64,000 bases of DNA, taken from Mobula hypostoma (Eukaryota). Below the pieces are notes generated by a model. That model saw only the letters and a list, made by a program, of their open reading frames with translations, was not told the DNA's origin and searched no databases. Both the position numbers and the translations under genes were made by a program. The stretch spans positions 51,338,001 through 51,402,000 of the forward strand of contig NC_086097.1 of NCBI RefSeq assembly GCF_963921235.1, given 5' to 3'. Shown piece by piece: positions 2,765-55,632 of this stretch (position 1 is the stretch's first letter; each line of letters begins with the position of its first letter).

Positions 2765-2884
2765 CTTACTATCTCTTCTTTCAGTTAGTCCTGACGAAGG
2801 GTCTCGGCCTGAAACGTTGACTGTACCTCTCCCTAAAGATGCTGCCTGGCCTGCTGCGTTCACCAGCATTTTTTCTGTGTGTTG
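2765..2884 (+). mobile_element. Short Penelope-derived 3' terminal insertion
   Basis: Matches the 3' end of the longer PLE copies; 12-bp TSD TTTGAAGTATCT at 2753-2764 and 2885-2896. Confidence 0.8.
2787..2822 (+). ncRNA. Minimal type I hammerhead ribozyme-like motif (GUU triplet)
   Basis: AGUC-CUGACGA-AGGGUCUCGGCCU-GAAAC-GUU-GACU; GUC>GUU fits CpG decay. Confidence 0.62.
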
Positions 2885-4837
2885 TTTGAAGTATCTGTGG
2901 CCATTTCCTATTGAAGTCCCACTTTTTGGAAATGCCTGCCCCAATGTATCCTCCCTCTGATGAAAACTCTATTTTCCCTGTTTCCCAAACATGACGTCAT
3001 TGGCATGGATTACTTAAATCAACCAAAAGTTTGAGAGGTCATCACTTACTGTCTTCATATTTAACTCCAAATTCAAATAGTTAATTGCTTTCAGATGAAT
3101 GGATTCTGCACCTTTTGAAATATTCCCCATTTTAATGTATGAAAGAACAAAATAGAAGTAATTTAGAATTAAACATAAAATGCTAGAAAACTTGAGGGGG
3201 CCAGCAGCACCTTGGAAAAGGGAAACACTTAACCTTGTAGGTCCAATATCCTCATCAGAACTTGGGGGGGGGGGACAATTTAAGTTGTCAGCAGTACAGA
3301 AACTGGGGTAGGGATGGGTAGAGCAAAGGAAATATCCTTGATCAGATGTGACCATATTAGCTAATACAGCAATTACAGCAGGTGTAGAAATCAGATAATT
3401 CTTCTCTGAAAATTTTATTTCATTCACAGTGGACATTTGGTACAAGTCTGTAAACCAATAGCAGGAATCTGAACTGCAGTCATGCAAGCCCAATGCCGCT
3501 GATTTTTGGAACCCCCACCAAATAACATCACATTTTTCTATTTTCTCTTCCCGTTGGCATCATCTTCGTAGCACAGATTTTAAAACTTTTATAAAAGGGG
3601 GTCAACTCATAACACTTGTTTAAAGCAACAATGTCCAAACTTTGGATTTTTTTTCTGATGACTTCTGATTTGGTGTTGGCATTAGGGGGAACCCTTTCTC
3701 AGTGAACCAGTCATCTGGGATAATTGTTGTTTGGGTAACAAAACAATTTTTAGGCAGAGAATCAGCCAAGATCTTATTGAACAGCAGAGCAGACTTGAGA
3801 GACCTAATGATATTCCTGCTCCAATTTCTTTTATACAATATGGAGAATATTAATACATTTCCAGAATGGCTGTTATTGTTAAACACCATCATTAAGGACC
3901 CCTCCCCCCCCCACCATCACCCAGGGCATGCCCTTTTCTCTTTGTTACCATCACAAAAGAGGTACAGAAGCCTAAAGTCACTTTTATTGTACTTTTGACC
4001 ATAACTGCCAGTACAGTACACACTCAGAGACTCAGGAATGCTTTTCCCCCCTCTGCCATCCGATTCCCGAATGGACATTGAACCCATGAACACTACCTCA
4101 CTTTTATTATTTTGGTTTTTGCATAACTTTTAATTTAACTATTTAATATGCATATTTATATATTTAAATTGATTTACTTATTTATTTTTCACTATATCAT
4201 CATGTACTGCATTGTACTGCTGCTGCTAAGTTAAGAAATTTCATGGCAAATGCCAGTGATATTAAATCAGAATCTGATTATTAGTAAACAAAATTTGATG
4301 CAAGTGGGAGGGGCTATATTTTGTTCATTAGAATTTGAAGATAAACATTCCTTGGAAAATGAATCCGAAAGGACTGAAGATGCACAATGATTTAACAGCA
4401 GATCAGTGGTGATGCAGGTTAATAAAGTGTTTAAAAGGGAAAACGAAGCAATTACTGGAAAGACAAAATTTAAAGCTGAGAAGTTACATTGTTTTTCTTT
4501 AACACAGCGCAGGTTCAAGTACTGTGAACAGTGCAGTACGGAAATTTGTTGTTGATCACAAATACATGCAATGTACCAACAAACATTTAGCACTCCTGCA
4601 CAAGCCATTAAGATGTCTTCAATGTGAGAATTACAATTAGTGGCTGATGTTTGACTCAAGCAAACAAAAATGAATTACTGTCCCATGCTTTCTACATTAT
4701 TAAATACAAAAAGGCTGTGGAGAAGATGCCAAAACAATCTACAAGGCCAATACCAGGTCTGAAACGTTATACTGCAACAGTACAGGGTACTCGTGAGGCC
4801 GCACCTGGAGTACTGTGTGCAGATCTAGTCTCCTTAT

Positions 4838-4970
4838 ACAACAGGAATTCTGCAGATGCTGGAAATTCAAGCAACACACATCAAAGTTGCTGGTGAACGC
4901 AGCAGGCCAGGCAGCATCTCTAGGAAGAGGTACAGTCGACGTTTCAGGCCGAGACCCTTCGTCAGGACTG
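4838..4970 (-). mobile_element. Short Penelope-derived 3' terminal insertion inside a CR1
   Basis: Same sequence family; interrupts the CR1 RT C-terminal region (..SPY|LRRDILALE..). Confidence 0.8.
4934..4969 (-). ncRNA. Minimal type I hammerhead ribozyme-like motif
   Basis: AGUC-CUGACGA-AGGGUCUCGGCCU-GAAAC-GUC-GACU: stem I AGUC/GACU, CUGANGA and GAAA boxes, short stem II, palindromic ACGU stem III, GUC triplet. Confidence 0.7.
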
Positions 4971-16956: not shown

Positions 16957-17059
16957 AACACACATAAAAGTTGCTAGTGAACGCAGCAGGCCAGGCAGCA
17001 TCTCTTGGAAGAGGTACAGTTGACATTTCGGGCCGGGACGCTTCGTCAGGACTAACAAG
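16957..17059 (-). mobile_element. Short Penelope-derived 3' terminal insertion
   Basis: Same family; 9-bp TSD TTAACAAGC at 16948-16956 and 17060-17068. Confidence 0.75.
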
Positions 17060-18839: not shown

Positions 18840-19700
18840 CATTTCTTTTACACGTGAAAGATCTAAATGAAGGTCGTCTCGCAGCGGTTACGGTCTGAAC
18901 CCGCTTCCAGAAGTTTACGTTTACCAGACAACGACACAGTTGAACACTGCACTACGAGGTAGCTCGCAGGAAGGATGATTAATCATATTGGGAGTGGATG
19001 ATGATTGCAACGTCTCCAAAACACAGATGGATGCAGGGAGGGACGTTGAATAAAACTAGCTCGCCCCAAAATGCAGGTTTCAAACAATTCAGCTTCATCT
19101 TAATTATTTTTAAAGATATTCCCTGTTTAATTAAGCATACAAACAGGAAGCTGCAATCTAGGTTAGCAAATCTAAAGGCAACACAATTGTCAGTACAAGG
19201 TAAACATCACACACCCAATAAAATATAATCAACTTTAAAGGAGATACACGTTTTCGCCCACCGTTGTGAGAAACGCCCTGACTGCCCTTGACGATCCCCA
19301 CTACCGAAAAGCAATTTCAAACGGACACTTCCTGCAGCTGTTGGTGCAAAATTCACTCCATGGTTTGAATCTCATTCAGCAGCTAAAACAACGCTTACCA
19401 ACTGCTCCCAGATTTCACTCTACTTCCCGGCCTTCCCCCGCTTGTCAGCGGTCTTCAGCTGGAGGTCAAAAGATGCCCTGAACAGCAGGAGCAGTGTCGG
19501 GGCGAGCAATCTCCCGGGCATCAGACAGGGGAGCTGATCAACCTCCCGCTCTCCCGCTCTCCCGCTCTCTTCCTTCCTCCCTCCCTGTCCTTCTGCCAGA
19601 TCTGCCCTCGCCTTGCAGCTTTTCAACGGTTTCTGTCATAGGAGGCGGCTCCTGCATAATCTCTGCGCTTTAAAACGTAAAAGGTCAGGCTTAAGCACTG
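18840..19700 (-). promoter_or_regulatory. NIN: Probable NIN promoter and non-coding first exon (exon 3' end at 19399)
   Basis: Local CpG/GC enrichment in an AT-rich, CpG-poor background, not recognisable as a repeat. Consensus donor TTG|GTAAGC on the minus strand at 19399/19398. The NIN ATG exon has an upstream acceptor, so a non-coding exon must exist. Confidence 0.55.
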
Positions 19701-19926
19701 AACCATGTGACATTCACAGATGGGCTCTTACAGGCTTTAAACAATTTTCGCTTTCTCACTATTTCAGCGCCTTCTGCAGACTGGAAGACCGATGTAGCAA
19801 ATCGCAAGGAATAAGCACAATAAGCTTGTTCTTTTTGTTTCTCTGTTCTATATTACTGTATAATAATAATGAACGTATTCTTGACTGAACAGTTTAAGGG
19901 AAAGAAAATGATCTTATGAAAATAGA

Positions 19927-20121
19927 AAACAACAGGAATTCTGCAGATGCTGGAAATTCAAGCAACATACATCAAAGTTGCTGGTGAACGCAGCAGGCCA
20001 AGCAGCATCTGTAGGAAGAGGTGCAGTCGACGTTTCAGGCCAAGACCCTTCGTCAGGACTACTACTCTTCCTACAGATGCTGCTTGGCCTGCTGCCTTCA
20101 CCAGCAACTTTGATGTATGTT
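19927..20121. mobile_element. Short Penelope-derived fold-back insertion
   Basis: 57-bp inverted arms 19964-20020 / 20065-20121; TSD TTATGAAAATAGA at 19914-19926 and 20120-20132. Confidence 0.85.
20025..20060 (-). ncRNA. Minimal type I hammerhead ribozyme-like motif
   Basis: AGUC-CUGACGA-AGGGUCUUGGCCU-GAAAC-GUC-GACU, in the loop of the fold-back element. Confidence 0.68.
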
Positions 20122-20690
20122 ATGAAAATAGATTCGCATTATTCCTATGATTGAAACACATATTAACGACTAGCTCCTCAAATGACTTAGTGTGCGCTTG
20201 AAATAACTTGGTCAATACAGGTGGAGATTTTCAAGTTTTGCTCGGTGTTGAATGAGCTGATTGTGGTCAGGTTAAATTGAACACTCTTGTCTGGGGTGGG
20301 ATGGTGGATACTGTCTAGTGTGGTAGACACGAGGCACTGCAGATATTGTAATCTGGAACATCAGACAATCCGTCCAGACGCCGGGTTTAGACTGTTGACA
20401 ATTCACCCCGCCCACAGATGCGGCTCTCAAATAAGTACCTCCAGCAGACTGTCACTATCCAGTGTTGGATTCTCATGCAGTGACGCTAAGCTGCAAGTGT
20501 GAGTGCTTGACTTCAGACAACTACAGGAATCACTGGGATAGTTCCCAGCCAGATATGAAGGCACTGTTTCACCAGGAACACAATAGAGTTTGGAGTTAAT
20601 ACTTTGAAGAGAGTAAATGGAGAAGATAAACTTGCAAAACGTTCACCTCATTAGTTTTCCAAAATCGTGACCCAATGTCAACACCTCCTA

Positions 20691-21819
20691 CAAACAAGAG
20701 AAAATCTGCAGATGCTAGAAATCTGAGCAACACACACAATATGCTGGAAGAACAGCAGGCCAAGCAGCATCTTTGGAAAAGAGTGAAGAGTCGACGTTTT
20801 AGGCCGAAACCCTTCGTCTGGACTGGAGACAAAAAGATGAGGAGTCAGAGTAAGAAGGTGGGGGAGGGGAGGAGGAAATACAAGGTCGTGGGTGATAGGT
20901 GAAACCGAGAGAGGGGGAGGGGTGAGGTAAAGAGCTGGAAAGTCAATTGCTGAGAGATAAAGGGCTGGAGAAGGGGGAATCTGATAGGAGAGGACAGAAG
21001 GCCATGGAAGAAAGAGAAGGGGGAGGTGATGGGCAGGTAATGAGATAAGGTGAGAGAGGAAAATTGGAATGGGGAATAGTGAAGAAGAAGGGGATTAGCA
21101 GAAGTTTGAGAAATGCCATCAGGTTGCAGGCTACCCAACCGACACTTCACCTGAGAGTCTGTTGGGGTCATCTACTGTATCCGGTGCTCCCAGTGTGGCC
21201 TCCTGTATATTAGTGAATGCAGATTGGAGACAACTTTGCCGAACACCTATGCTCTGTCTGCCAGTAAAAGTGGGATTTTCCAGTGACCACCCATTTTAAT
21301 TCTACTTCCCATTCCCATTCTGACACGTCAGTCCATGGCCTCCTCTGCTGCCACAATGAGGCCACACTCAGTTTGGAGGAACAACACATTATATTCAGTC
21401 TGGGTAGCCTCCAACTTGATGGCATGAACATTGATTTCTCAATCTTCTGGTAATGGCCCCCCACTCCCTTCACCATTCCCATTTCCCTCTCTCAACTTAT
21501 CTCCTTCCCTGCCCAACACTTCCCTCTGGTGCTCCTCCCCTTCCCTTTATTCCATGGCCTTCTGTCCTCTCCTATCAGGTTCTGCCTGCTCCAGCCCTGT
21601 ATCTCTCACCAATTGACTTCCCAGCTCTTTACTTCATGCCTCCTCTCCCGGTTTCATCTATCACCTACTACCTTGTAATTCTTCCTCCCCTCCCCCCGCC
21701 TTCTTACTCTGACTTCTCATCTGCTTTCTCCAGTCCAGATGAAGTGTATCGGCCCAAAACGTTGACTCTTTTCCATAGATGCTGCCTGGCCTGCAGAGTT
21801 TCTGCATCATCTTGTGTGT
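20691..21819. mobile_element. Penelope-like element with inverted structure (minus copy 20691-~21140, plus copy ~21141-21819)
   Basis: GIY-YIG remnant on plus and an inverted copy of the 3' region on the left; diverged flanking repeat GTCAACACCTCCTA / GTCGGCACCTTCTA. Confidence 0.8.
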
Positions 21820-25520: not shown

Positions 25521-26378
25521 AAAAACAGAAATAAATTGAATTTAATAAGTTTTCTTCCTGTGCCTGAAATATTAACAAATTAAGGAGCCAAGCTTATTAA
25601 AATTTGATAATCACCTCCTGGTGGTAACTGAAACCTTAATTATTTATTGTGGTCCATCTTAGAAATGCACTAAAATATTTCTTGATTCTTACTTAGCTCA
25701 GTGATTAACAGTGAACTGGATGCCTGCTGGTTACTTCAGATCTTGCAGAGTGGAAACTTGGCTTAGTTCAGCTCAGTAGCACCACCGTGTGTCTAAATGT
25801 AAAGTTACATTGTACATTTCATTTTGGAGGTTACAAAAACAACTTTGATCAATTTCAAAGTTCAAAGTAAATTTACTATCAAAGTATGTATACCATATAC
25901 AACCTTAAGACTCATTCTCTTGTAGGCACTTACAGTAAAACAAAGAAGCACAATATAATACACGAAAAACTCCACATATCAAACATCCAATGTGCAAAAG
26001 AGGAAAATCATACAAACAAAAACAAACAAACAAATAATAGTCATGAGCTGCAGAGAAAGTGAGTCCACAGGCTTCAGTGTTGAGGCAAGTGAAGCCAGGC
26101 TAGTAGCCCGATGGCTGCAGATTAACAGCTGCTCCTGAACCTGGCAGCATGGTACCTAAAACTCCTGCACCTACCACCCAACGATAAAAGCAAGAAGAGA
26201 GAGAAATGGGTCAAGTGCAGCTAGATGTGATGGGCTCAGGTGGGGTTTCTTGGCTGGCACGGAGTAGTGGGGCTGAACATTGATTCCTTTTCCAATCTTG
26301 GGCCTCGATGGTTTAATCTGGTTCAACACTTTAATCAGTGCTCCCTCTTTCAGCTCTCACTCTCTTGTCATTATAATA

Positions 26379-27735
26379 GTCATAGTCATACTTTATTGAT
26401 CCCGGGGGAAAATGGTTTTCGTTACAGTTGCACCATAAATAATAAATAGTAATAGAATCATAAATAGTTAAATAGTAATATGTAAATTATGCCAGGAAAT
26501 TATGAAATAAGTCCAGGACCAGCCTATTGGCTCAGGGTGTCTGACCCTCCAAGGGAGGTGTTATAAAGTTTGATGGCCACAGGCAGGAATGACTTCCTAT
26601 GATGCTCTGTGCTGCATCTCGGTGGAATGAGTCTCTGGCTGAATGTACTCCTGTGCCCAACCAGTACATTATGTAGTGGATGGGAGACATTGACCAAGAT
26701 GGTATGCAACTTAGACAGCATCCTCTTTTCAGACACCACCGTCAGAGAGTCCAGTTCCATCCCCACAACATCACTGGCCTTCCGAATGAGTTTGTTGTTT
26801 CTGTTGGTGTCTGCTACCTTCAGCCTGCTGCCCCAGCACACAACAGCAAACATGATCGCACTGGCCACCACAGACTCGTAGAACATCCTCAGCATCGTCC
26901 GGCAGATGTTAAAGGACCTCAGTCTCCTCAGGAAATAGAGACGGCTCTGACCCTTCTTGTAGACAGCCTCAGTGTTCTTAGACCAGTCCAGTTTATTGTC
27001 AATTCGTATCCCCAGGTATTTGTAATCCTCCACCATGTCCACACTGACTCCCTGGATGGAAACAGGGGTCACCGGTACCTTAGCTCTCCTCAGGTCTACC
27101 ACCAGCTCCTTAGTCTTTTTCACATTAAGCTGCAGATAATTCTGCTCACACCATGTGACAAAGTTTCCTACCGTAGCCCTGTACTCAACCTCATCTCCCT
27201 TGCTGATGCATCCAACTATGGCAGAGTCATCTGAAAACTTCTGAAGATGACAAGACTCTGTGCAGTAGCTGAAGTCCGAGGTGTAAATGGTGAAGAGAAA
27301 GGGAGACAAGACAGTCCCCTGTGGAGTCCCAGTGCTGCTGATCACTCTGTCGGACACACAGTGTTGCAAGCACACGTACTGTGGTCTGCCAGTCAGGTAA
27401 TCAAGAATCCATGATACCAGGGAAGCATCCACCTGCATCGCTGTCAGCTTCTCCCCCAGCAGAAGAGGGCGGATGGTGTTGAACGCACTGGAGAAGTCAA
27501 AAAACATGACCCTCACAGTGCTCACTGGCGTGTCCAGGTGGGCGTAGACATGGTTCAGCAGGTAGACGATGGCATCCTCAACTCCTAGTCAGGGCTGGTA
27601 GGCGAACTGGAGGGGATCTAAGTGTGGCCTGACCATAGGCTGGAGCAGCTCCAGAACAAGTCTCTCCAGGGTCTTCATGATGTGGGGGGGTCAATGCCAC
27701 CGGTCTGTAGTCATTGAGGCCGCTAGGGCGCGGCA
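26379..27735 (-). mobile_element. Rex1/Babar-clade non-LTR retrotransposon, 5'-truncated, young
   Basis: ORF 26524-27525 with FFDFSSAFNTI, PQGTVLSPFLF, KFSDD; short tandem tail (TATGAC)n at the left end. Confidence 0.85.
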
Positions 27736-29498: not shown

Positions 29499-30375
29499 TC
29501 AAGTCATAGTCATACTTTATTGATCCCAGGGGGAGATTGGTTTTCGTTACAGTTGCACCATAAATAATAAATAGTAATAGAACCATAAATAGTTAAATAG
29601 TAATATGTAAATTATGCCAGTAAATTGTGAAATAAGTCTAGGACCAGCCTATTGGCACGGGGTGGCTGACCCCCAAGGGAGGAGTTGTAAAGTTTGATGG
29701 CCACAGGCAGGAATGACTTCCTATGACACTCTGTGCTGCATCTTGGAGGAATGGGTCTCTGCCTGAATGTACTCCTGTGCCCACCCAGTACATTATGTAG
29801 TGGATGGGAGACATTGACCAAGATGGCATGCAACTTAGACAGCATCCTCTTTTCAGACACCACGGTGAGAGAGTCCAGTTCCATCCCCACAACATCACTG
29901 GCCTTACGAATGAGTTTGTTGATTCTGTTGGTGTCTGTTACCCTCAGCCTGCTGCCCCAGCACACAACAGCAAACATGATAGCACTGGCCACCACAGACT
30001 CATAGGACATCCTCAGCATTGTCCGGCAGATGTTAAAGGACCTCAGTCTCCTCAGGAAATAGAGACGGCTCTGACCGTTCTTGTAGATAGCCTCAGTGTT
30101 CTTAGACCAGTCCAGTTTATTGTCAATTCGTATCCCCAGGTATTTGTAATCCTCCACCATGTCCACACTGACCCCCTGGATGGAAACAGGGGTCACTGGT
30201 ACCTTAGCTCTCCTCAGATCTACCACCAGCTCCTTAGTCTTTTTCACATTAAGCTGCAGATAATTCTGCTCACACCATGTGACAAAGTTTCCTACCGTAG
30301 CCCTGTACTCAACTTCATCTCCCTTGCTGATGAATCCAACTATGGCAGAGTCATCCGAAAACTTCTGAAGATGAC
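29499..30375 (-). mobile_element. Second, shorter copy of the same Rex1/Babar-clade element
   Basis: Near-identical to 26379-27250 including 3' UTR and tail; truncated just upstream of HLQKFSDD. Confidence 0.85.
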
Positions 30376-30538
30376 TTGTTGACTGCAAAATTTTATGCTC
30401 AATTGCCTTGTAAAAATTCTTTATTATGGCATGTAATTTTAAAATAAATTTTATATTTACCATTGTGGCAAGGCCAGCATTTATTTCTTATTCTATAATG
30501 CCTATTTAAAAAAATACAGCAAGTTGTTGTGTTGAACT

Positions 30539-31770
30539 GGAGACAGACTGTCCACTGATATCTTCTACAAGCCCACTGACTCTCATAACTACCTTGACTA
30601 TAACTCTTCCCACCCTCCCACATGCAAAAATGCCATTCCCTATTCCCAGTTCCTCCGTCTCCGCTGCATCTGCTCCAAGGATGAGGCTTTCCGTTCCAGG
30701 ACATCTCAAATGTCCTCTTTCTTTAAGGATCATGGTTTCCCTTCTACCGTCATCAATGATGCCCTCACCCGCATCTCCTCCATTTCCTGCACTTCGGCCC
30801 TCACCCCATCCTCCCACAACCACAACAGGGACAGTGTTCCCCCTGTCCTTACCTACCACCCCACCAGCCTCCGGATCCAGCACATTATCCTCCGCAACTT
30901 CCGCCACCTTCAACAGGACCCCACCACTAAGCACATTTTTCCCTCTTCACCCCTCTCTGCTTCCCGCAGGGATCGGTCCCTCCACGACTCCCTTATCCAC
31001 ACGTCCATCCCCACTGATCTCCCACCCGGCACTTATCCCTGTAAGCGTAAGTGCTACACCTGTCCCTACACCTCATCTCTTGCAACCATTCAGGGCCCCA
31101 AACAGTCCTTCCAGGTGAGACAACACTTCATTTGTGAGTCTGTTGGGGTCATCTGTTGCATCCGGTGCTCCCCTGCAGCCTCCTCTACATCAGTGAAACC
31201 CGACGCAGATTGGGGAACCGCTTCGTCGAGCACCTCCACTCCATCCACCGCAACAGACAGGATCTCCCGGTAGCCACCCACTTCAACTCTGCTTCCCATT
31301 CCAATTCAGATATGTCCATACATGGCCTGCTCTACTACCGTGATGGGGCTAAACTCAGATTGGAGGAGCAACACCTCATATACCGTCTAGGTAGTCTCCA
31401 GCCTCTTGGTATGAACATAGAATTCTCCAACTTCCAGTAATTCCCTCCCCCTCCCTTCCTCTATCCCTATTTCACTCTACCCCCTCCCCCAGCTCCCTCA
31501 TGGTTCCGCCTCCTTCTTCTACTACCCATTGTTTTCAGGGCTATGATGTCAATGCTTCCCCTCCCTCAACCCTTTGTCTTTCAAATTACTGGTCTTTCAA
31601 CTGAAGCTACAAGCATTCTTCAAATCCTTCCCCATCTTTCATTCTTCAGTCCTGATGAAGGGTTCCAGCCCGAAACATTGACTCATCGTTTCTGACTGAT
31701 GCTGCCCAACCTGCTGAGTTCATCCAGCGTACTGAAAGAGTTGCTTTGATCACAGCACCTGCAGGTTATT
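30539..31770 (+). mobile_element. Penelope-like element, 5'-truncated (RT end + GIY-YIG endonuclease + 3' region)
   Basis: LSTDIFYKPTDSH (RT), CKRKCYTC, ICCIRCS/LLYISETRRRLGNRFVEHL (GIY-YIG like), LGSLQPLGMN; 12-bp TSD TTGTGTTGAACT at 30527-30538 and 31771-31782. Confidence 0.88.
31648..31683 (+). ncRNA. Hammerhead-like motif, partly decayed
   Basis: AGUC-CUGAUGA-AGGGUUCCAGCCC-GAAAC-AUU-GACU in the 3' region of the PLE. Confidence 0.5.
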
Positions 31771-32750: not shown

Positions 32751-34554
32751 CATAGGTGTTATACATCAATTTGAATAATAAATGATGCATTCTTGATTTG
32801 CGCTTTGTGAATGGTGGAAAGGCTTTGGGAAATTGGAAGGTGTCACTCACTGCTGGTTACATAGCCCTGATCTCATCTTTTGAAAAAAGATCTCAAACGT
32901 AACATCTGTAACCAGATGAATGTTGAATATAATTTTTTATTGTTAAAGTGTACTTAGGTATTCACCCTGGTAATGCTAAAACAGCTGCCTGTGCATTTAA
33001 GAGAAAATGATGATGTAAATTTTGCACGGGTGGAGTAGAAAGAAGAATTGCAAGGTTCAAGAAAGGACATCAAATGCTGGTTGTATGGTGAGGAAAGATT
33101 TTCGCGAGTAGGGTAACGGCGCTAGTTAGTGTGGTTGTGCGAAGTCCCTTACCGGCTTAGTAGGTTAGTCTCTTGTAATTTAGGCTCCAAGGCAATATAT
33201 TGTAAAAGTTTATTTTTGTCTTTATTGTTTCATGACCGAATGTGAATGTGTTAATCTGTTTACGTAGCATGAGCGAGAAGAACTTGTTTCAGGGTCTAGC
33301 TATATGTGTTTGGAAGTTGAGCATATGTGTGCCAAACTGAGTGTAACTTTCAGTTAAATGAGATGTATTTATTCATTTTTTATGTGTATGAAGTATGGGG
33401 TTGGTGGGATACTAATGTTGTTTGTATTTTTTTAGAATTGCCACCGATGTATTGCTTTTGTATATTTTGCTTTATTTATTTTCATACTGCATATGTAACA
33501 GGGATGTGGACTAAAATTAAGCTGAAATTGTAACAGCAGGAACTGTGTTTTTTTAAAATCCATTTTGTCATTTTTAATTTGATACCCTCTTTCTGCATTA
33601 AACCACCTAAATAAATTAAAGACCCGAAAAAGTATTTGTTGTCCTGCATGTGCATTTTTCCCGAGGCTACAAAACACCTATTAACATTTCTTTTATACCT
33701 AGTTGGATTTTCATAAAGTTTATACAGTAAGTATGAAATGTTTGATGTACAGAGACTTGAATCACCAGAACACAAGTCATCCAAAATATGTAGTGAGCAG
33801 AGGGAACATTTTGAGTTGTCTAACAAATGAACAAGGTTCTGGAGATTGCAATTTAACACTGGCATTGATAGTAGTTTGTGCAATTTAAGAAGTTTTAGTT
33901 GTTATACATCAATTTAAATATATTAAACAGTCCTGTTGAGTCATAGAACACCACAGCAGAAACAGGTCCTTCATCTCATCTAGTCTATGTCAAACTATTA
34001 TTCTGCCTATAGTCCCATTGATCTATACCCAGACCATAGATTTCCATAGCCCGCCCATCCATGTACCTATCCAAATTTCTCTTAAATGTTGAAATCGAAC
34101 TCACACACACCACTTCTGCTGGCACCTCATTCCCCACACTCATCACCCTCTGAGTGAAGATGTTGCCACTAATATTCCCCTTAAACATTTCACTTTATAC
34201 CCTTAACCCATGACCTCTAGTTCTAGTCTCACTCAACCTCAGTGGAAAAAGCTTGTATACACTTACCCTAACTTTAACTTCATAATTTTATATACCTCTA
34301 TCAAATCTCCCCTCATGAAGTCCAGAACGCTTCAACCTTTCCCTAAAACTCAGGTCCTCAAGTCCTGGCAACAACCTTGTAAATTTTCTATCCACTCTTT
34401 CAGTCTTATGACATCTTTCCTGTAGGTACCGCAGATAATACTGCATATAGATATTTGCAGCACAACAGGTCATTGACCTTATGATCATGCTGGTCAAAAA
34501 TGGACAGTGTTTAATCCTGAAAAATAAATTTTAAAAAACTCCTGACTGTGAGAT

Positions 34555-35070
34555 AAGGAAAAAATTAATCAAATTTGCAGATTTATTAGGTAAAGTCCGT
34601 AAAGGAGCCGAACGGTCCAAAGCTGGAGATAAACAGGTATTAAGATCTCCGCCCCAAATCAATGAAAACTCGTTCAAATTCGGAAACTGATCAAACAATG
34701 ATTTATAAAATTCCGGACAATCCATATTAGGAGCATAAACATTAACCAAAACTACTTTTTTATTAAATAATAAACCACTAACCAATAAAAATCTACCATT
34801 CGGATCAGAGATAATATCCTGTTGTATAAAAGTAACTGAGGAGTCTATAAAAATAGAGACGCCTCGAATCTTAGCATTGGAGTTCGAATGAAATTGTTGT
34901 CCCTTCCAAAATTTGAAAAAACGTAGTCTGTCCCCCCTCCGTACATGGGTCTCTTGTAAAAATAAAATTTGTGCTTTAAGTCTCCGGAACACTTTAAAAA
35001 CTTTTTTCCTTTTAATAGGATGATTAAGACCATTAGTATTCCAGGAGACAAAATAAATAATAGACTCCAT
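34555..35070 (-). CDS. L1 ORF2 N-terminal part (APE endonuclease, first ~172 aa), cut by the inversion
   Basis: MESIIYFVSWNTNGLNHPIKR...FLQETH...NVYAPN...GGDLN; ends KSANLINFFL, the same peptide that begins the plus-strand part. Confidence 0.9.
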
Positions 35071-35791
35071 AAATCCTAAAGTCAACCCATAACAAGGAGG
35101 ATTGACAATAGGCGCGACCCACAGACCCGGAGAGGAAACAGAACATACAAAAGATACCGGGGAAAAGGACGTAACCAATACTTCAATAATGTATATAGCC
35201 CAAAGAGAAACAAACTAAAACGTGAAGCCCCTCCCACCACCCCCCACCCCAGGACCCCAAGGCGAAATCTAAAGCAGACCCGCCAGAAAGAAGCAAGCGC
35301 TAAAACTACCCCCATGACTTCCGGTATACGCTCCCTAAAAAAAAGGTATAAATATGAAAAGGATCAGCTAATTGTAAAACAGTAAAAAAAATAAGTAAAA
35401 AAAAGTTAGCTCAATTAAAATACACACAGAACAGAACAAAAGCCGGAAAGTATATATTAAAAAAAAACCACAATAAACCTCAAACTCATGAATAGACACA
35501 GCAACAAAAAAAATAGGATTATTAACATAAAATGATTATAAAAAGCAAAACAGAATAAAATTTAAAAAAAACTACAAAATTTAAGGCCGCACAGGAAATA
35601 CGTAAGATGACAAAAGGGAAGTAACCACCCAGAATCCCCTGGGAAAAGAAAGAAATGACGCAGTTAAAAAGAAAGTTTAGCAGCCATATTAAGAAATCAA
35701 AAGTAAACTTTTCTGCCCAAATAGGGCACAGAAAAGTTAAAACCAACCAATTCACAGCCTCCGATCAACGGAGAAAATTAAAAAAAGGCAA

Positions 35792-36691
35792 TTAAGATGT
35801 TGAAGATGAAAGTTGATCCAGATAACTCTGGGCATCCGATGGAGAATCAAAAAAACGAAGAGCTCCATCTAACATGCGAATCCTTAGACGTGCAGGGTAC
35901 AGCAGCGCTGGTCTTAAATCCATCTTATAGAATTCCGACATCACGGATCTGTAACGGACCCGTTGGTCCCAGATTGGTTTACTGAAATCTTCCACGAATC
36001 GGAACTTAAGATCCGAAAAATCAATGAAACCTTTAGATCGAGCGAATCGAAACAGTCTCTCCTTGTCTTGAAAGTAATGAAAACGTAAAATAACATGCCT
36101 AGGTCTATCTGACCTAGACGAGTATGATGGGATTCTGTGAACACGATCCAGTAGCGGTGGTTGGTCAGGAAATACAGTAGGGAATGCATCTTTTAAAAGT
36201 TGGGAGAAATATTTCATAGGGTTGTTAGCTTCCACGGCTTCCCTGACGCCAATCATTCGTAAATTCTGCCGTCGCATTCTAGATTCCAAGTCAGAGTTTT
36301 TAAAAGTCAAAAAGTCAAGTTTCTTCTTCATTACATTAATTGTTTCTTCGACTTTCCCCATCTTAAGCTCACTTTGTTGCGCGGATTTTTGAAGACCAGA
36401 TATAGCCGACTGATGTTCCGCAATACATGTTTGCATCTTATCAATTAAGTCGGCAATTTTCTGGAACTTAGTTGAGATTTCCATATGAATCAGGTCTTTA
36501 ACAGAGCCCATAATTTCTGTACGAATCATCTCCCTAACAGAGGTTGAAATTTCCCTCTGAATTAACTCCGATATAGCTTCCAAAGTCACCGGTGATTCAG
36601 TCGGAGGGAGATCCGTAGCTTTCGGTTTAACCGGAGGTTTACCATCCTTGCCGTCTTTCCCGTTCTTAGACATAGCCGATCTCAGTATCAT
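35792..36691 (-). CDS. L1 ORF1p (coiled coil + RRM + CTD, transposase_22-like), uninterrupted
   Basis: Motifs DLESRMRRQNLRMIGVRE, LDRVHRI, PRHVILRFHYFQDKE and LLYPARLRI are typical of vertebrate L1 ORF1. Confidence 0.9.
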   Translation of the reverse strand: MILRSAMSKNGKDGKDGKPPVKPKATDLPPTESPVTLEAISELIQREISTSVREMIRTEIMGSVKDLIHMEISTKFQKIADLIDKMQTCIAEHQSAISGLQKSAQQSELKMGKVEETINVMKKKLDFLTFKNSDLESRMRRQNLRMIGVREAVEANNPMKYFSQLLKDAFPTVFPDQPPLLDRVHRIPSYSSRSDRPRHVILRFHYFQDKERLFRFARSKGFIDFSDLKFRFVEDFSKPIWDQRVRYRSVMSEFYKMDLRPALLYPARLRIRMLDGALRFFDSPSDAQSYLDQLSSSTS

Positions 36692-36794
36692 CCAATTGTC
36701 AGAGAATTCAGTTTAATTCAAAGTATTGTAAAAATTGATGCCTTAATAGTTAATTAAAGTATAGCTGACCATAGAGAGAAAAAACTCAGAGGTA

Positions 36795-39700
36795 ATGGAG
36801 CGAGTCAAAAATTTAATTAAATCTGCAAATTTGATTAATTTTTTCCTTTCTGATTCTGGGTCGACGGACATTTGGCGTTTTCTGCATCCTCAGGAAAAAG
36901 ATTTTTCCTTCTTTTCACATGTTCATCATTCCTATTCAAGAATTGATTATTTTTTCATTGATTCTCGTCTCATTCCTTCAGTGATTAAATGTGATTATGA
37001 TTCTATAACCATTTCGGATCATGCTCCACTTAAGCTTTCTATTAAAATTATGGCCAATATACCAAACAATAGACAATGGCGTTTTAATTCGCTGTTGCTT
37101 CAGGACTCGGACTTTGTTAATTTTATGAATGAACAGATTGAGCTTTTTTTTACAATTAACCATACAGAAGATATTTCGGTTAACACTCTTTGGGACACTT
37201 TTAAAGCCTATATTCGGGGTCAGATTATTTCGTATTCCGTTGCTTTGAGGAAGAAACAGAAGCAGGAGGAGATGGTAATTGTGGACAAGATTAAAGAAAT
37301 TGATAAGAAATATGTTATGGCTCCTTCTGAGGAGCTATACAAACAAAGAACTGAACTTCAAATGGAACACAGTTTACTACTCTCGTCCTCGATTGTAAAC
37401 CAATTAAAGAAAACAAGAAGTGATTTTTATGTTCACAGTGATAAAATTGGCAAGCTGCTGGCTAATCAATTGAAATCTAATTATGTTAAATCTCAAATCA
37501 ATCAGATTTATAACCAAAATGATCGATTGATATTGGATCATGTGGGGATTAATCAAACCTTTTGTGATTTTTATTCTTCTTTATACCAATCAGAGTCTCC
37601 TCGAGATTCTAAATATATGAATGATTTTTTAGATAAGTTAGACTTCCCTCTGATTTCACAGGATATGTCTTCTTTATTAGATACTTCCATTACAATGGAT
37701 GAGATTAAGAATGTTATTTTTTCTATGAATCTGGGGAAAGCTCCTGGCCCTGATGGGTTTACCGTTGAATTTTATAAATGTTTTGCTTCTTTATTGATTC
37801 CTTGGCTCTATAAGGTTTTTGAGGCTTCTTTGAAACTTGGTAAACTTCCGGAATCTTTTAATAGAGCATCAATTTCTTTAATACTAAAGAAGGATAAAGA
37901 CCCTGCTCAATGTGCATCTTATAGACCAATATCTTTATTAAATGTTGATTCTAAAGTTTTTTCTAAGTTATTAGCAAATAGACTAGAAAAAGTACTTCCT
38001 TCTATTATTTCGGAAGACCAAACGGGTTTTATTAAAGGTCGTTACTCTTTTTATAATATTCGTACATTGTTAAATATCGTTTATACTCCCTCACAAAATG
38101 TTCCTGAGTGTGTTATTTCTTTAGATGCCGAGAAAACTTTTGATAGAGTAGAATGGCCTTATTTATTTAAGGTGCTTGAAATGTTTAATTTTAGCTTGAA
38201 ATTTATATCCTGGATTAAACTGTTATATTACTCCCCTGTAGCCTCGGTTCGTACTAACTCCTTAAACTCACCTTTTTTTCCTCTCTTTCGTGGTACTCGA
38301 CAAGGCTGTCCTCTTAGTCCCCTATTATTTGATATTGCATTAGAACCTCTTGCAATTGCTATTCGAGAATCTTTAAATATTACTGGGATAACTCGGGGAT
38401 TAAAGTCCCATAAATTATCACTCTATGCTGATGATTTACTTTTATATATTTCTAATCCTGAGAGATCCATTCCTGCTGTTTTAGAGTTATTAGCACAATT
38501 TGGTCTTTTCTCAGGTTATAAATTAAATCTTAGTAAGAGTGAACTTTTTCCGATTAATAAACATCTTCCCTTATATTATAAATTTCCATTTAAATTGATT
38601 AATAATTACTTTTCATATCTTGGGATTAAAATTACTTGTAAACATAAAGATTTATTTAAGACTAACTTTTTACCATTAATAGACCATATTACTCAACTTT
38701 CATCTAAATGGTTTCCCTTATATTTAACTTTGATTGGTCGTATTAATGCAGTTAAGATGTTTTTTTTGCCAAAATTTTTATATGTGTTTCAGGCATTACC
38801 AATTTTCATTCCTAAATCTTTTTTTGATAAAGTTGACTCTAAAATTTCTTCATTTATTTGGCAGAACAAGAATCCGAGACTGGGTAAAATACATTTACAG
38901 AAAGCTAAGAGAGATGGAGGTTTAGCATTACCTAACTTTAGATTTTATTATTGGGCTATTAATATTCGACATATGAAATTTTGGTTACTTGACCGGGATA
39001 TACTATTTATTCCTAAATGGGTAGCATTGGAATTACAATCTGTTCAGGGTTATACACTTGGTTCTATTTTAGGTTCCTCTCTTCCTTTTGATTCGAAACG
39101 TCTTAAGCAGGTCTCTAACCCGATAGTTAAATATGCTTTGCGCATTTGGTTTCAATTCAGAAAATTTTTTGATCTTAATCAATTCGGGTTAGCGATTCCT
39201 ATTTTAGGTAACATATTTTTTCCTCCCTCTTTTACGGATCGCGCTTTTCAAACTTGGAAGACTAAGGGTATTTTACGGTTTTTGGATTTATTTTTAGATG
39301 GTTCCCTTATGTCTTTTGAACAATTATCTAATAAATATAACTTATCAAGAATACATTTTTTTAGATATTTACAAGTTAGAAATTTCCTAAGTACTATACT
39401 TACTTCCTTTCCAATGCTTCCTCCTATATATATTTTAGATTCGATAATTAACCTTAATCCATGTCAGAAAGGTGCATCGGCTATGATTTATAATATTATT
39501 ATGAAACTTAGGAAAGCTCCATTTGATAAGATTAGGGTAGATTGGGAACAGGAATTGGGGCTTACCATTTCTGTGGATGATTGGGGGCAGATTTTACAAT
39601 TAGTTAATACTTCCTCTATTTGTGCTAAACATTCCCTAATTCAATTTAAAGTGGTTCATAGAGCACATATGTCCAAAGATAAGTTAGCGCGTTTTTACTC

Positions 39701-40109
39701 GCATATTAATCCTTTCTGTGATAGATGTTCGGGGCAGATAGCCTCTTTAACTCATATGTTTTGGTCTTGCCCTACTTTGGAAACTTTTTGGAGAGATATT
39801 TTCAATATTATTTCTAAGGTATTAAATATAGATATCTCTCCTCACCCTATTACTGCTATCTTTGGACTACCTAAAATTTCTAGTAATCTTTCCCCTTCAG
39901 CCCGTAGAATGATTGCATTTCTTACTTTAATGGCGAAAAGATGTATTTTACAACATTGGAAAGAGCTTAATGCTCCAACTACCTTTTTTTGGTTTTCTCA
40001 GACGATTTTATGTTTGAATCTGGAGAAAATTAGAAGTAACCTTTATGATTCTTCATTTAAATTTGAACAGATTTGGGGACCTTTTATTCGATATTTTCAT
40101 TTAATGTAA
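36795..40109 (+). CDS. L1 ORF2 remainder (end of APE, reverse transcriptase, Cys-rich C-terminus), 1104 aa, uninterrupted
   Basis: SRIDY, SDH, KAPGPDG, YRPISLLN, RQGCPLSP, YADD and CxxC...HMFWSC motifs. The first ~8 residues derive from the inversion junction. Confidence 0.95.
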   Translation: MERVKNLIKSANLINFFLSDSGSTDIWRFLHPQEKDFSFFSHVHHSYSRIDYFFIDSRLIPSVIKCDYDSITISDHAPLKLSIKIMANIPNNRQWRFNSLLLQDSDFVNFMNEQIELFFTINHTEDISVNTLWDTFKAYIRGQIISYSVALRKKQKQEEMVIVDKIKEIDKKYVMAPSEELYKQRTELQMEHSLLLSSSIVNQLKKTRSDFYVHSDKIGKLLANQLKSNYVKSQINQIYNQNDRLILDHVGINQTFCDFYSSLYQSESPRDSKYMNDFLDKLDFPLISQDMSSLLDTSITMDEIKNVIFSMNLGKAPGPDGFTVEFYKCFASLLIPWLYKVFEASLKLGKLPESFNRASISLILKKDKDPAQCASYRPISLLNVDSKVFSKLLANRLEKVLPSIISEDQTGFIKGRYSFYNIRTLLNIVYTPSQNVPECVISLDAEKTFDRVEWPYLFKVLEMFNFSLKFISWIKLLYYSPVASVRTNSLNSPFFPLFRGTRQGCPLSPLLFDIALEPLAIAIRESLNITGITRGLKSHKLSLYADDLLLYISNPERSIPAVLELLAQFGLFSGYKLNLSKSELFPINKHLPLYYKFPFKLINNYFSYLGIKITCKHKDLFKTNFLPLIDHITQLSSKWFPLYLTLIGRINAVKMFFLPKFLYVFQALPIFIPKSFFDKVDSKISSFIWQNKNPRLGKIHLQKAKRDGGLALPNFRFYYWAINIRHMKFWLLDRDILFIPKWVALELQSVQGYTLGSILGSSLPFDSKRLKQVSNPIVKYALRIWFQFRKFFDLNQFGLAIPILGNIFFPPSFTDRAFQTWKTKGILRFLDLFLDGSLMSFEQLSNKYNLSRIHFFRYLQVRNFLSTILTSFPMLPPIYILDSIINLNPCQKGASAMIYNIIMKLRKAPFDKIRVDWEQELGLTISVDDWGQILQLVNTSSICAKHSLIQFKVVHRAHMSKDKLARFYSHINPFCDRCSGQIASLTHMFWSCPTLETFWRDIFNIISKVLNIDISPHPITAIFGLPKISSNLSPSARRMIAFLTLMAKRCILQHWKELNAPTTFFWFSQTILCLNLEKIRSNLYDSSFKFEQIWGPFIRYFHLM

Positions 40110-43901: not shown

Positions 43902-43907
43902 TTTATT
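43902..43907 (-). terminator. Candidate PYGL polyadenylation signal (AATAAA), implying a 3' UTR of about 750 nt
   Basis: tttatt on + strand at the end of a non-repetitive stretch downstream of the stop codon, just before CR1 sequence resumes. Confidence 0.6.
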
Positions 43908-53044: not shown

Positions 53045-53488
53045 TACACTCAGTGGTGAATTTATTAGGTACCTCCTGTTGTAACACGTGGCTAATGTCG
53101 TTACTGTCGATTTCCTGTCAGTTTGAACCAGTCTGACTATTTTCCTCTGATCTCATTCACAAGGCATTTTTGCCCATAGAACTGCTCACTGGAATTTTTT
53201 TGTTTTTTTTTTGCACCAATCTCTTTAAACTCTAGAGACTATTGTGCTTGACAATTCCTGGCAATCAGCAGATTCTGAGACACTGAAACCACCCCATCTG
53301 GCACCAATAATTATTAAGCGGTCAAAGTCAGTAAGATTACACTCCTTCCCCATTATGATGTTTGTTCTGAACAAATGAACCTCTTGAGCATGTCTGCATG
53401 CTTTTGTGCATTGAGTTGCTGTCACATGATTGGCTGATTAAATATTTGCATTAACGAGCAGATATATCCAATAAAGTGGCCACTGAGA
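53045..53488 (-). mobile_element. Non-autonomous Tc1-like element
   Basis: Imperfect TIRs TACACTCAGTGG...TTTATT / AATAAAGTGGCCACTGAG; minus strand has a transposase N-terminal remnant (MGKECNLTDFDR..IIGARWGGFSVSE). Confidence 0.7.
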
Positions 53489-53758
53489 AGAACAGACAAA
53501 AAAGAGTTTGCTCGGCTTTCCTGGCAAAGTGAATGTCTGTTCTTTTTGCCTGCTATTTCTTCTGAAATAGCATACAGATATTACATCTCATAATGTGTGT
53601 GAGGCTTAGATGTCCATGAATGCTTCCCGTGTCATTTGAATCATGATAATCCAAGCATGCATTGACAATTTCCTTGTGTCAAAGACAGTACAGTCATATC
53701 AGAAGAAGCTGATGCTTTGATCAGGGTAGATGATACAAGTTCAAAAGGGCACCTCTTT

Positions 53759-54927
53759 TGTTGCAACAGGGCATTTGGAAGCAGACCCAAGAGCAGGACA
53801 CAGATTTGTAAGAAGCATTTACAGAAGTGTGTTTATTAATAGTTGCCAGGAAAGCCGGGGAGCGAGGATAGAATGCTTACGCGGACGAGGATGCAGGACA
53901 ACAAACAGGAGGAGCTCAGACACGGAGCCTGGACTTGGACACGGATCCTGGACTTGGACTTGGACTTGGAGATGGAGCCTGGACTTAAGTCTTCGACCTG
54001 GAGCCTGGACTTGGACTTGGACACAGACACAGAGCCTGGACTTGAACTTGAATTCGGACATGGAGCCTGGACTTGGACTTGGAGCGTGGACTTGGACCCG
54101 AAGCCTGGACTTGGACTTGGACTCAGACTTGGACCTGGAGCCTGGACTTGGATTTGGACACGGAGATACAGAATACCTAACTCGGAGTAGCGGCAAACGG
54201 CCGGACCTACTCAGCTGGAAACGGAGCGACCAAACCAAACAACAACAGACAATCCATATCTTGACACGGAGTAGCACATGAAGCAGCCAACGGACGGCAA
54301 TCACTCAGCTGGACACGCAGAGACAGAATTTCCAACTCGGAGTAGCGGCAAACGGTTGGACCTACTCAGCTGGAAACAAGATGACTAACCCAACCAATGA
54401 CTGACAATACGAAACTTGACATGGAGTAGCTCATGAAGCGGCAAATGTCTGGCAATCACTTAGCTGGACACGAAGAGACAGAATTCCCAACTCGGAGTGG
54501 CGGCAAACAGCCTGACCGACTCAGCTGGAAATCAGATGACAAAAACCAAACAATGACAGTCCGTTTGTATCTTGGCTCGGAGTGGCGACAATCGGCCAGC
54601 AATCTTAGCCAGTCATGAAAACGACAAAATTCGCATCTTGACTCGGAGTAGCGGCAAAACGGCCAACAACTCAGCTGGACACGAAAACGACTGAATTCAC
54701 TAAGCAGCCACAGGCACTGAAGCAACTTAGAGTCCATGATTCTCGGCGGCTCCAGGATGAGCATAGCCGCACTGGCTATGGTGATGAACCAGCAATGAGT
54801 AGATGTAAGCCGGAGTTTTTATGCTGCTGGTTCGAATGAGGATCAGGTGCCCTACTCAAGGAGCCCAGTGGAACACGGGGAAAAGGAAATTAACTGAAAT
54901 AAGTAGTCAACGGACTGGACAGTGACA
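53759..54927 (-). mobile_element. Solo LTR-like element related to 56680-58093, with different internal repeats
   Basis: Minus strand starts TGTCACTGTCCAGTCCGT and ends CTTGGGTCTG...GCAACA, matching both ends of the other element; AATAAA on minus near 53833; no TSD seen. Confidence 0.65.
53922..54690. repeat. (GGACTT)n/GGAGCCT array followed by a longer unit repeated about 3.5 times
   Basis: 53922-54160 hexamer-based array; ACTCGGAGT.GCGGCAAAC...ACTCAGCTGGA recurs near 54180, 54335, 54490 and 54640. Confidence 0.88.
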
Positions 54928-54929
54928 TA

Positions 54930-55632
54930 AATAAGGGATGGGTGAGAACGGGAGGAGGTGCATTAATGGAAGTTAGAGAAATCAACGTTCATGCCATCAG
55001 GTCGGAGGCTGCCCAGACGGAATATAAGGTGTTGTTCCTCCACCCTGAGTGTGGCTTCATCTTGACAGTAGAGAAGGCCAAGGATAAACATATCAGAATG
55101 GGAATAGCACACGGAATTAAAATGTGTGGCCACTGGGAGATCCTGCTTTGACATATCAGAATGGGAATGGGACGTAGAATTAAAATGTGTGGGACATATC
55201 AGAATGGAAATGGTTCTCACCCCATCCCTTATTTAATTATTATTTTTTTCCTTTTTTTCCCCTCTCTCTGTCCCTCTCACAATTACTCCTGCTCTCCAAC
55301 TTCCTTTGGCACTCCCCACCCCCTTTCTTTCTCCCTAGACCTCCCGTCCCATGATCCTCTCCCTTCTCCAGCCTTGTATCCCTTTTGCCAATCAACTTTC
55401 CAGCTCTTAGCTCTATCCCTCCCCCTCCTGTCTTCTCCTATCATTTCGGATCTCCCCCTCCCCCTCCCCCTCCCACTTTCAAATCTCTTACTAACTCTTC
55501 CTTCAGTTAGTCCTGATGAAGGGTCTTGGCCTGAAACGTCGACTGTCCCTCTTCCTATAGATGCTGCCTGGCCTACTGCATTCACTAGCATTTTGCGTGT
55601 GTTGCTTGAATTTCCAGCATATTTCCTCGCGT
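54930..55632. mobile_element. Penelope-like fragments (minus ~54930-55210, plus ~55212-55632)
   Basis: Minus strand LPVATHFNS...EEQHLIFRLGSLRPDGMN; plus strand pyrimidine-rich 3' region with the hammerhead-like motif. Confidence 0.8.
55509..55544 (+). ncRNA. Minimal type I hammerhead ribozyme-like motif
   Basis: AGUC-CUGAUGA-AGGGUCUUGGCCU-GAAAC-GUC-GACU. Confidence 0.7.

Follow-up and report, generated by a model that had tools for sequence, protein, structure and literature searches.

Minimal hammerhead ribozymes of Penelope-like elements were described by Cervera & De la Peña in 2014 (PMC4209133): they combine a CUGANGA box, an extra base before stem II, a pair between G10.1 and a pyrimidine, a GAAA box, a loop-less palindromic stem III, a NUH site and a short stem I, and are mostly found dispersed, as singletons left by truncated elements, and sometimes as close opposite-strand pairs. 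All of these traits are shared by the ray copies reported here. Monomers of the published ribozymes were without cleavage and dimers cleaved at a low level; cartilaginous fish are absent from Table S1 and Fig. S3 of that work. The motif of PAc, a Poseidon element of Anolis carolinensis (Frangieh et al. 2024, PMC11167929), cleaves only with the element protein, and no RNA-seq reads end at its cut site; core mutants do not affect insertion, cleavage being dispensable in vitro. The function of Penelope hammerheads has been called unclear (PMC8557442). In a 2026 preprint (bioRxiv 10.64898/2026.07.22.740005), one chondrichthyan genome was searched with canonical and minimal hammerhead models, and motifs were found.

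The window analysed here is a 64-kb stretch of Mobula hypostoma DNA, in which eight motifs, named below by their first coordinate, were found. They are very probably minimal type I hammerhead signatures, located in the 3' terminal repeat of 5'-truncated, Neptune-type insertions, with dispersed copies that are likely inert and likely decaying neutrally. The element class is already known from other animals, and the Mobula family is an additional member of it; no ray or shark description of this family was found in the literature searched.

The positions and strands assigned to the eight motifs by a first-pass annotation were all confirmed. Relative to the 4934 copy (no mismatches), 2787 and 20025 differ by 1 base, 55509 by 2, 20789 by 3, 17018 by 5, 21732 and 31648 by 7; a scan of both strands of the window, at up to 13 mismatches to the same copy, returned exactly these eight. 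An IUPAC pattern, with up to 3 mismatches allowed, matched five times in the window and never in 100 shuffles, while a descriptor built from core boxes and pairing alone recovered four of the eight (2787, 4934, 20025, 55509) and nothing else, with no match in 100 Markov controls. The number of motifs in the window is thus far above chance expectation. When contig collections from viruses, metagenomes and prokaryotes were scanned with a degenerate form of the motif, each returned 0 loci. The Hammerhead_1 search suggested by the first-pass annotation leaves the motif undetected: at E <= 1, Rfam reports five matches, none of them to a hammerhead family. With a stem I of 4 bp, a loop-less helix III and no Rfam hammerhead match, the motif departs from a canonical type I hammerhead, in which helix I has 6 bp and loop-loop contacts and helix III is capped; core boxes, stems and location in a terminal repeat all fit the minimal type carried by Penelope-like elements, as had been proposed.

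The complete boxes CUGANGA and GAAA are found in six of the eight copies; the other two carry the changes U4A and G12A. H17 is C or U in all eight. Stem II measures 4 bp, with one extra nucleotide between A9 and 10.1, and the 10.1-11.1 pair is G-C in three copies and G·U in five, as in several rows of Fig. S3 of PMC4209133. The nearest of these rows is that of an Acropora digitifera Neptune element, nearly identical in layout (4-bp stem II, 4-nt loop, CGUC). Positions 15.2-16.2, without a loop 3, read CG in six of the eight copies, UG in one and CA, a broken pair, in one. Overall, 61 of 64 stem cells are paired (95.3%), against 46.9% at most when the sequence is slid. Three copies had been graded as intact (4934, 20025, 55509), 2787 as near-intact and the others as decayed: this grading holds, and can be refined copy by copy. 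The sole change in 2787 is C17->U, with the NUH site retained; 17018 keeps every core letter, having lost one stem I pair and one stem II pair; 20789 and 21732 both feature U4A and G12A; in 31648 the stem III palindrome is gone. Four of the eight copies are structurally broken.

Non-CpG departures are found at 4 of 184 cells in core and stems, 5 of 16 in the loop and 80 of 473 downstream, a contrast drawn from eight non-independent copies, themselves found via the motif. CpG transitions account for 19 of the 28 departures within the motif, at 10 of its 36 columns (P = 1e-5). In these alignments, core and stems are conserved across subfamilies, and single copies decay mainly through CpG loss. 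None of the 8 stem pairs is altered on both sides among the eight copies, a sample too small and too uniform to reveal compensatory changes. Public contigs vary within the motif at N7, at a loop base and at 11.1 (C/U), among the 40 variants listed (99 more exist); all of these variants are tolerated.

Remnants of the element ORF adjoin four of the eight motifs (tblastn), and their homologues carry reverse transcriptase (RT) and GIY-YIG domains. The longest is a frameshifted C-terminal ORF at 30536..31437 (+), including the RT/thumb end, a CKRKCYTC linker and the GIY-YIG endonuclease: it is 77% identical to a Hypanus protein and 46% to proteins bearing PF00078 and PF01541, and aligns to residues 508-804 of one homologue, P0006 (PF00078 + PF01541). 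Three pieces of element ORF from the window gave no Pfam match at E <= 0.1. The RT core is truncated away in the window copies; neither a full-length element nor a tandem pair is present within the 64 kb, so that the 5' repeat and the RT core are unseen here. The remaining four motifs are 72–92% identical, over about 100 nt, to GIY-YIG-linked copies, the four solo copies being tied to the element ORF solely by this homology to longer ones. The linker of the 30.5-kb copy has the form CX3CxxC; a CX2-5CxxC linker between RT and endonuclease is found in Neptune and Nematis, not in Poseidon (PMC8557442). Neptune is preferred to Nematis because, in the preprint cited above, Neptune and Poseidon are the only types reported from vertebrates.

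The eight motifs correspond to seven insertion events, since 20789 and 21732 belong to opposite arms of a single insertion. Target duplications of 9–15 bp, mostly AT-rich, flank five of the seven; none convincing was found for the 4934 and 55509 events. The 4934 motif (4934..4969, minus strand, predicted cut between 4938 and 4937) opens a 132-bp solo insertion with tail (4838-4969), of which it takes up the first 36 nt; this insertion lies inside a LINE reading frame, presumably CR1-like, and shows no clear duplication, only 2–3 nt of microhomology. The tail, optional and about 36 nt long (4838..4871, minus strand), spans about +99 to +134, counted from where stem I begins; it is found in 4934, 20025, 20789 and, more diverged, 31648, and is missing from 2787, 17018 and both inverted arms. 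The 2787 motif (2787..2822, plus strand) sits in an insertion at ~2765-2884, with 12-bp duplications at 2753-2764 and 2885-2896. The 17018 motif (17018..17053, minus strand) belongs to a solo insertion at 16957-17059 between 9-bp duplications, where element homology begins about 3 nt before stem I.

Inverted arms are present in three of the seven events; two of these have a resolved duplication, and both carry the tail on one end alone. This arrangement is as drawn in PMC8557442, where an optional tail of 30–40 bp is also defined; the tail is covered in PMC11167929 as well. The 20025 motif (20025..20060, minus strand, predicted cut between 20029 and 20028) lies in a young insertion at 19927-20119, with a 13-bp duplication at 19914 and 20120. 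Its inverted arm, 57 bp at 20065..20121 (+), is identical at 56 of 57 positions to +41..+97 of the same copy and extends stem I in exact register, past a 4-nt, partly mismatched junction: arm and hammerhead are predicted to fold into a long hairpin whose loop is the hammerhead itself (-135.8 kcal/mol, z -15.9). The Rfam candidates MIR2118_2 and MIR1144, at 19947-20136, were rejected as microRNAs: they are below gathering scores and coincide with this 57-bp fold-back. The second event, an old insertion at 20691-21818 with a 15-bp duplication (3 mismatches) at 20676 and 21819, contains the two dead-core motifs, 20789..20824 on its direct arm (minus strand) and 21732..21767 on its inverted arm (plus strand), the latter downstream of a GIY-YIG remnant at 21134-21447. 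The third is the 55509 event, in which an inverted GIY-YIG C-terminal remnant (54948..55187, minus strand) lies on the 5' side; its motif, 55509..55544 (plus strand, predicted cut between 55540 and 55541), is antisense to PYGL and follows some 260 nt of 3' UTR from the element. The 30.5-kb ORF is held by a 5'-truncated insertion at 30539-31770, with 12-bp duplications at 30527 and 31771; about 210 nt past the ORF stop, its decayed motif, 31648..31683 (+), has U17 besides the lost palindrome.

A lone hammerhead is predicted to fold as an inactive rod, where G5-G8 pair with C15.2-C17: -10.0 kcal/mol, compared with -6.0 for the open-core fold, by nearest-neighbour energies that ignore the tertiary contacts of the core. 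The probability of core mispairing is 0.79 for 4934, 0.90 for 20025, 0.47 for 2787 and 0.17 for 55509. For a dimer, the predicted double-hammerhead fold reaches -9.5 kcal/mol, versus -28.3 for an inactive rod dimer. A possible natural dimer, 20025 with 20789 (same strand, 764 bp apart), was discarded: the core of 20789 is dead, 20025 is locked in its 57-bp hairpin, and both copies are upstream of the presumed NIN promoter.

The non-CpG change U4A, together with G12A, is common to both arms of one insertion and found in no other copy, which fits a ribozyme already dead when it inserted; gene conversion between the arms could also account for it. Since the inverted pair shares a dead core, cleavage is probably not needed for insertion. 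By analogy with the Anolis element (PMC11167929), the element protein would nick AT-rich DNA, reverse transcription would start within the RNA, at either of two positions lying about 100 or 135 nt past stem I, and the uncut RNA would be copied towards its 5' end; most insertions would therefore retain the whole ribozyme, cut site included. The ribozyme may be under selection in master elements, where cleavage after GUC would be made possible by another copy on the same tandem transcript, by the element protein, or by both. Like PAc, the ray family shows two 3' end positions past the hammerhead, separated by roughly the length of the tail, keeps an uncut ribozyme in its insertions and has mostly AT-rich target duplications; unlike the Poseidon element, it has a Cys linker. 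In addition, the PAc ORF starts at stem II, whereas in the ray copies no frame opened by an ATG extends across motif and tail, and N7 is mostly C.

Non-LTR retrozymes (PMC7229834 and the preprint) are also short, non-coding units with type I hammerheads, related to Penelope terminal repeats; they are tandem and mostly canonical, while the ray copies lie scattered, are of the minimal type and bear the hallmarks of retrotransposition at their edges. The preprint reports retrozymes and monomer derivatives in one chondrichthyan, tied to Penelope-like terminal repeats, and the ray copies might be monomers of such a tandem, circRNA-forming family, derived from the terminal repeat. This is highly improbable: self-comparison of the window detects no tandem array at any of the eight motifs, and the solo copies, which contain the cut site whole rather than permuted, end at the tail positions of the element, with target duplications. 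Similarly unlikely to hold is a regulatory role, by which intact sense copies, such as 4934 in a NIN intron, would cut the host pre-mRNA, either in cis or through trans pairing with one of the many other copies, and tune the output of the host gene. The first-pass annotation had placed 4934 and 17018 sense to NIN, assuming a promoter at 19.4 kb. A coding exon for the N-terminal 61 residues of ninein, 100% identical to the Mobula birostris protein, is indeed present at 1880..2062 (minus strand) and identifies host gene, strand and lineage; the promoter is plausible from GC and CpG content, and the 4934 copy is intact and on the NIN strand (2787 is antisense to it); the family is also very abundant, with 6,547 and 5,036 matching contigs in two runs guessed to be RNA. 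Yet 17018, the sole same-strand partner within the presumed intron, is structurally broken and 12 kb from 4934, the published monomer, dimer and Anolis results argue against autonomous cutting, as does the preference for the rod dimer, and the decay of the copies is CpG-like. An effect of the 4934 copy on NIN is unlikely.

A further reading, possible but held tentatively, concerns the solo copies of 100–135 bp, which could be complete copies of a short uncut RNA with its 5' end at stem I: a non-autonomous mini-element, moved by the Neptune protein. The RNA would owe its 5' end to an initiator that overlaps stem I, or to a 3' splice site there, and fold-back of the cDNA on stem I would yield head-to-head copies, in agreement with the exact stem I register of the 20025 inverted arm. 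Of the seven events, three have their start no more than about 4 nt from stem I; no start falls between +4 and +100, nor at the cut site (P between 7e-4 and 1e-5, post hoc). In all four runs, the largest pile of 5' loose ends listed is at the first base of stem I of 55509 (1374, 1014, 198 and 150 contigs), and no loose end at the cut site is found among the 24 positions listed (1,942 further ones exist). This pile, however, mixes true 5' ends with copies of another subfamily, differing from the reference in upstream sequence (pyrimidine-rich consensus, agreement 0.33–0.51), and stalling of the RT at a stable rod would explain it without a discrete RNA end; moreover, upstream 3' UTR bins reach about 40% of the motif depth in one run, so that many copies are longer. 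The initiator consensus YYANWYY, placing +1 at the A of stem I, is found in all five copies keeping element sequence upstream; by chance alone it is expected once per 78 bases.

An acceptor-like signal is present in the same five copies, at stem I or 2 nt before it. In 55509 the predicted 3' splice site (55487..55506, plus strand) consists of branch-point-like CTTAC / TACTAAC, a polypyrimidine tract and CAG, 2 nt before stem I, and is also found in 2787; for 20789, 21732 and 31648, the acceptor is predicted at the AG within stem I. Pyrimidines occupy 17–18 of the 20 preceding positions in all five; as background, a less strict acceptor filter lets through 95 of the 8,593 AGs of the window. A candidate donor, GTAAT, overlaps the ORF stop in two of four copies; no joint between ORF end and acceptor is found among the 15 listed of 284. 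In Drosophila virilis Penelope, an element of another clade and host, the 3' end of an intron likewise maps to the 5' end of helix I (PMC2377424, PMC4209133), splicing being shown in Drosophila and predicted in the ray. The broader proposal is unlikely as a whole: that stem I, not the cut site, organises the element RNA, with a transcription start or an acceptor there, a short uncut RNA giving rise to a mini-element on the order of 100,000 copies, and stem I acting as fold-back primer for the head-to-head insertions that are typical of Penelope elements. If true, the ribozyme fold would contribute structurally to replication and would be switched by splicing, through a shortening of stem I.

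Eight motifs per 64 kb (1 per 8 kb) is a density far above the 4,000–9,000 copies per genome of coelacanth and Xenopus (PMC4209133), and the ray copies are more uniform. In one same-species DNA run, 79,670 contigs match a 761-base stretch (one motif copy plus element remnants). Summed contig depth at the motif is 5.75 million, against 15–31 for unique flanks, which would suggest 2–4 x 10^5, to be taken as a sign of great abundance rather than as a copy number. The high density put forward by the first-pass annotation is borne out; the step from it to a very large number of working ribozymes is not, the copies being dispersed monomers, half of them broken.

The abundance and uniformity of the ray family mean that a genome-wide map of insertion ends could test the function of Penelope hammerheads with high power. 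Three small leads are offered by this window: stem I, not the cut site, is where insertions begin; one insertion has a dead core; and, in a parallel with Drosophila, an acceptor-like signal lies next to stem I. Through this acceptor, copies may also become part of host transcripts, a possibility suggested by three Mobula gene models.

The window contains eight copies of a 36-nt motif, starting at 2787, 4934, 17018, 20025, 20789, 21732, 31648 and 55509: all coordinates and strands reported in the first-pass annotation are correct, and a scan of the window at up to 13 mismatches yields no further copy. At 3 mismatches or fewer, the motif pattern matches 5 times, against none in 100 shuffles; a descriptor made only of core boxes and pairing rules detects 4 of the 8 motifs and no extra site, with no match in 100 Markov controls. 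In the motif, AGUC/GACU form stem I, and the core boxes are CUGA(C/U)GA and GAAA; one additional A precedes stem II, which has 4 bp and a loop of 4 nt, the ACGU palindrome lacks a loop, and the cut-site triplet is GUC. Four copies (2787, with U17; 4934; 20025; 55509) are structurally complete and four are broken. No hammerhead family is present among the matches of an Rfam search of the window (E <= 1). All the sequence features of the minimal type I hammerhead class which are open to testing are found in the motif, and its original assignment to the minimal hammerheads of Penelope-like elements is correct.

The carrier element is represented by an ORF remnant at 30536-31437, which shares 77% identity with a protein of Hypanus sabinus and 46% with unnamed proteins containing RT and GIY-YIG domains, and by endonuclease remnants detected by tblastn at 21134-21447 and 54948-55187. 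Its linker, CKRKCYTC, matches the CX2-5CxxC motif, a feature of Neptune and Nematis according to the available part of PMC8557442. Neptune is tentatively preferred to Nematis because of the host, as indicated by the accessible part of a 2026 preprint (bioRxiv 10.64898/2026.07.22.740005). The element is very abundant: in a single DNA run, 79,670 contigs align to a 761-base test stretch, a figure which does not equal copy number.

The eight motifs correspond to seven insertions, 20789 and 21732 being the two arms of a single one. Target duplications measure 12 bp for 2787, 9 bp for 17018, 13 bp for 20025, 15 bp with 3 mismatches for the joint 20789 and 21732 insertion, and 12 bp for 31648; none could be resolved at 4934 and 55509. 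Inverted 5' arms are found in 3 out of 7 events. Counted from where stem I begins, the insertions have their 3' ends in two zones, around +97 to +104 and +123 to +134, except for 55509, which ends at +112. These two zones agree with the optional 30–40-bp tail of Penelope-like elements, and with the two internal RT start sites demonstrated, in the available text of PMC11167929, for the Poseidon element of Anolis carolinensis. Several template jumps may account for the structure of the 55509 insertion at its 5' side (54930-55235), where short pieces of inverted ORF remnant are repeated and the insertion's own junction recurs in inverted form.

Other repeats share the window. The 30.5-kb Penelope copy adjoins a LINE RT fragment at 29502-30375 (-), 95.5% identical over 875 bp to another, 3.1 kb apart, at 26378-27588 (-). 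A young-looking L1-type LINE at 35792-40109 (+), in a region not depleted in CpG, has two frames, one ORF1-like of 306 aa and one of 1114 aa containing RT and zf-RVT; its endonuclease N-terminus is seemingly inverted at 34531-35214 (-). At 58900-60400 (-), short stop-broken frames, identified by eye in a six-frame listing, resemble RNase H and integrase of a putative LTR/retroviral-like element. GC-rich tandem tracts (53916-54692 and 56902-57860), composed of ~155-bp and short 24–60-bp units, generate long spurious ORFs.

At non-CpG columns, 4 of 184 cells differ in core and stems, 5 of 16 in the loop and 80 of 473 in the downstream 60 nt; the contrast hints at selection acting on master elements, short of proof because the 8 copies are not independent and were recovered through the motif itself. 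CpG transitions account for 19 of the 28 departures inside the motif, as expected from neutral decay after insertion, and no stem pair is altered on both sides in these eight similar copies. In public contigs, the variants listed inside the motif affect N7, a loop base and position 11.1, where C makes up 27% (run X2) and 66% (run X9) of the summed depth. U4A and G12A are common to arms 20789 and 21732 and occur in no other copy. This is most simply read as insertion of a template whose ribozyme was already dead, the alternative being gene conversion between the arms.

As a monomer, the motif is predicted to fold into a rod, where G5-G8 pair to C15.2-C17 (-10.0 vs -6.0 kcal/mol for an open core); for dimers, the double hammerhead scores -9.5 vs -28.3 kcal/mol for the rod, all energies leaving out tertiary contacts. 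The probability of the rod mispair is 0.79 for 4934, 0.90 for 20025, 0.47 for 2787 and 0.17 for 55509. In the class, as described in the available part of PMC4209133, the monomers assayed did not cleave and dimers cleaved weakly; for Anolis, the accessible text of PMC11167929 reports cleavage only with protein present, insertion unaffected by core mutants, and no RNA-seq reads ending at the cut site. On these predicted folds and published behaviors, the dispersed ray copies are therefore likely inert. The proposal that motif density implies many working ribozymes is unsupported, and so is regulation of NIN by these copies.

An exon at 1880-2062 (-) matches ninein of Mobula birostris at 100% identity, and exons at 44–51 kb (-) encode glycogen phosphorylase, with the liver form as best match. 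A promoter around 19.4 kb is plausible from composition (GC 0.61 at 19401-19600; CpG o/e 0.4–1.1 across 18.6–19.8 kb); 4934 and 17018 would then plausibly be sense and 2787 antisense to NIN, 55509 antisense to PYGL, and 20025 upstream of the promoter. At 19914-20132, 400–600 bp upstream of this presumed promoter, the hammerhead forms the loop of a near-perfect hairpin of 57 bp, which produces spurious Rfam microRNA matches; if transcribed, this hairpin would yield double-stranded RNA.

Three of the seven events start within about 4 nt of the 5' edge of stem I, and no fragment starts between +4 and +100, apart from the inverted arm of the 20025 event (post hoc p 7e-4 to 1e-5). In all four runs, the biggest 5' loose-end piles among those listed coincide with the first nucleotide of stem I, where copies from a subfamily that differs in its upstream sequence are mixed in; none of the 24 listed, from contigs of the four runs, lies at the cut site. 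Splicing is one candidate explanation: all five copies retaining upstream element sequence feature 17–18 pyrimidines out of 20, followed by CAG at, or 2 nt before, stem I (a looser filter is passed by 95 of the 8,593 AGs of the window), and four have a branch-point motif. The 3' end of the D. virilis Penelope intron lies at the same place (PMC4209133, available part); a promoter and an intron are described for that element in the accessible part of PMC2377424. The same bases also match the initiator consensus, weak evidence for a start site. A peptide of the repeat is present in three Mobula gene models, P0033 (uncharacterized protein), P0034 (STARD3NL isoform) and P0035 (coenzyme A synthase), suggesting either exonisation or annotation noise: P0033 enters the repeat exactly at the predicted acceptor, and P0034 is also compatible with unspliced read-through. 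A GTAAT donor-like motif overlaps the element stop codon in two copies out of four (31436-31441 and 21449-21454, +); from exactly this point on, the residues of the Hypanus gene model P0001 are unrelated. Finally, the inverted arm at 20065-20121 extends stem I in exact register, which fits cDNA fold-back on stem I; self-priming had been proposed from palindromic junctions (PMC3846280, available part).

Cartilaginous fish are absent from Table S1 and Fig. S3 of the 2014 paper (PMC4209133), and the available portions of PMC6155905, PMC7229834 and a Greenland shark preprint contain nothing on the ray family; the accessible part of the 2026 preprint reports hammerhead-bearing repeats in one chondrichthyan. 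A search of the published and preprint literature found no description of this ray hammerhead/Penelope family, which is a further case of an already known class. Splicing, start sites and fold-back priming, as read from sequence, are leads to candidate roles of stem I; that it both sets the 5' end of the RNA and primes fold-back is rather unlikely.
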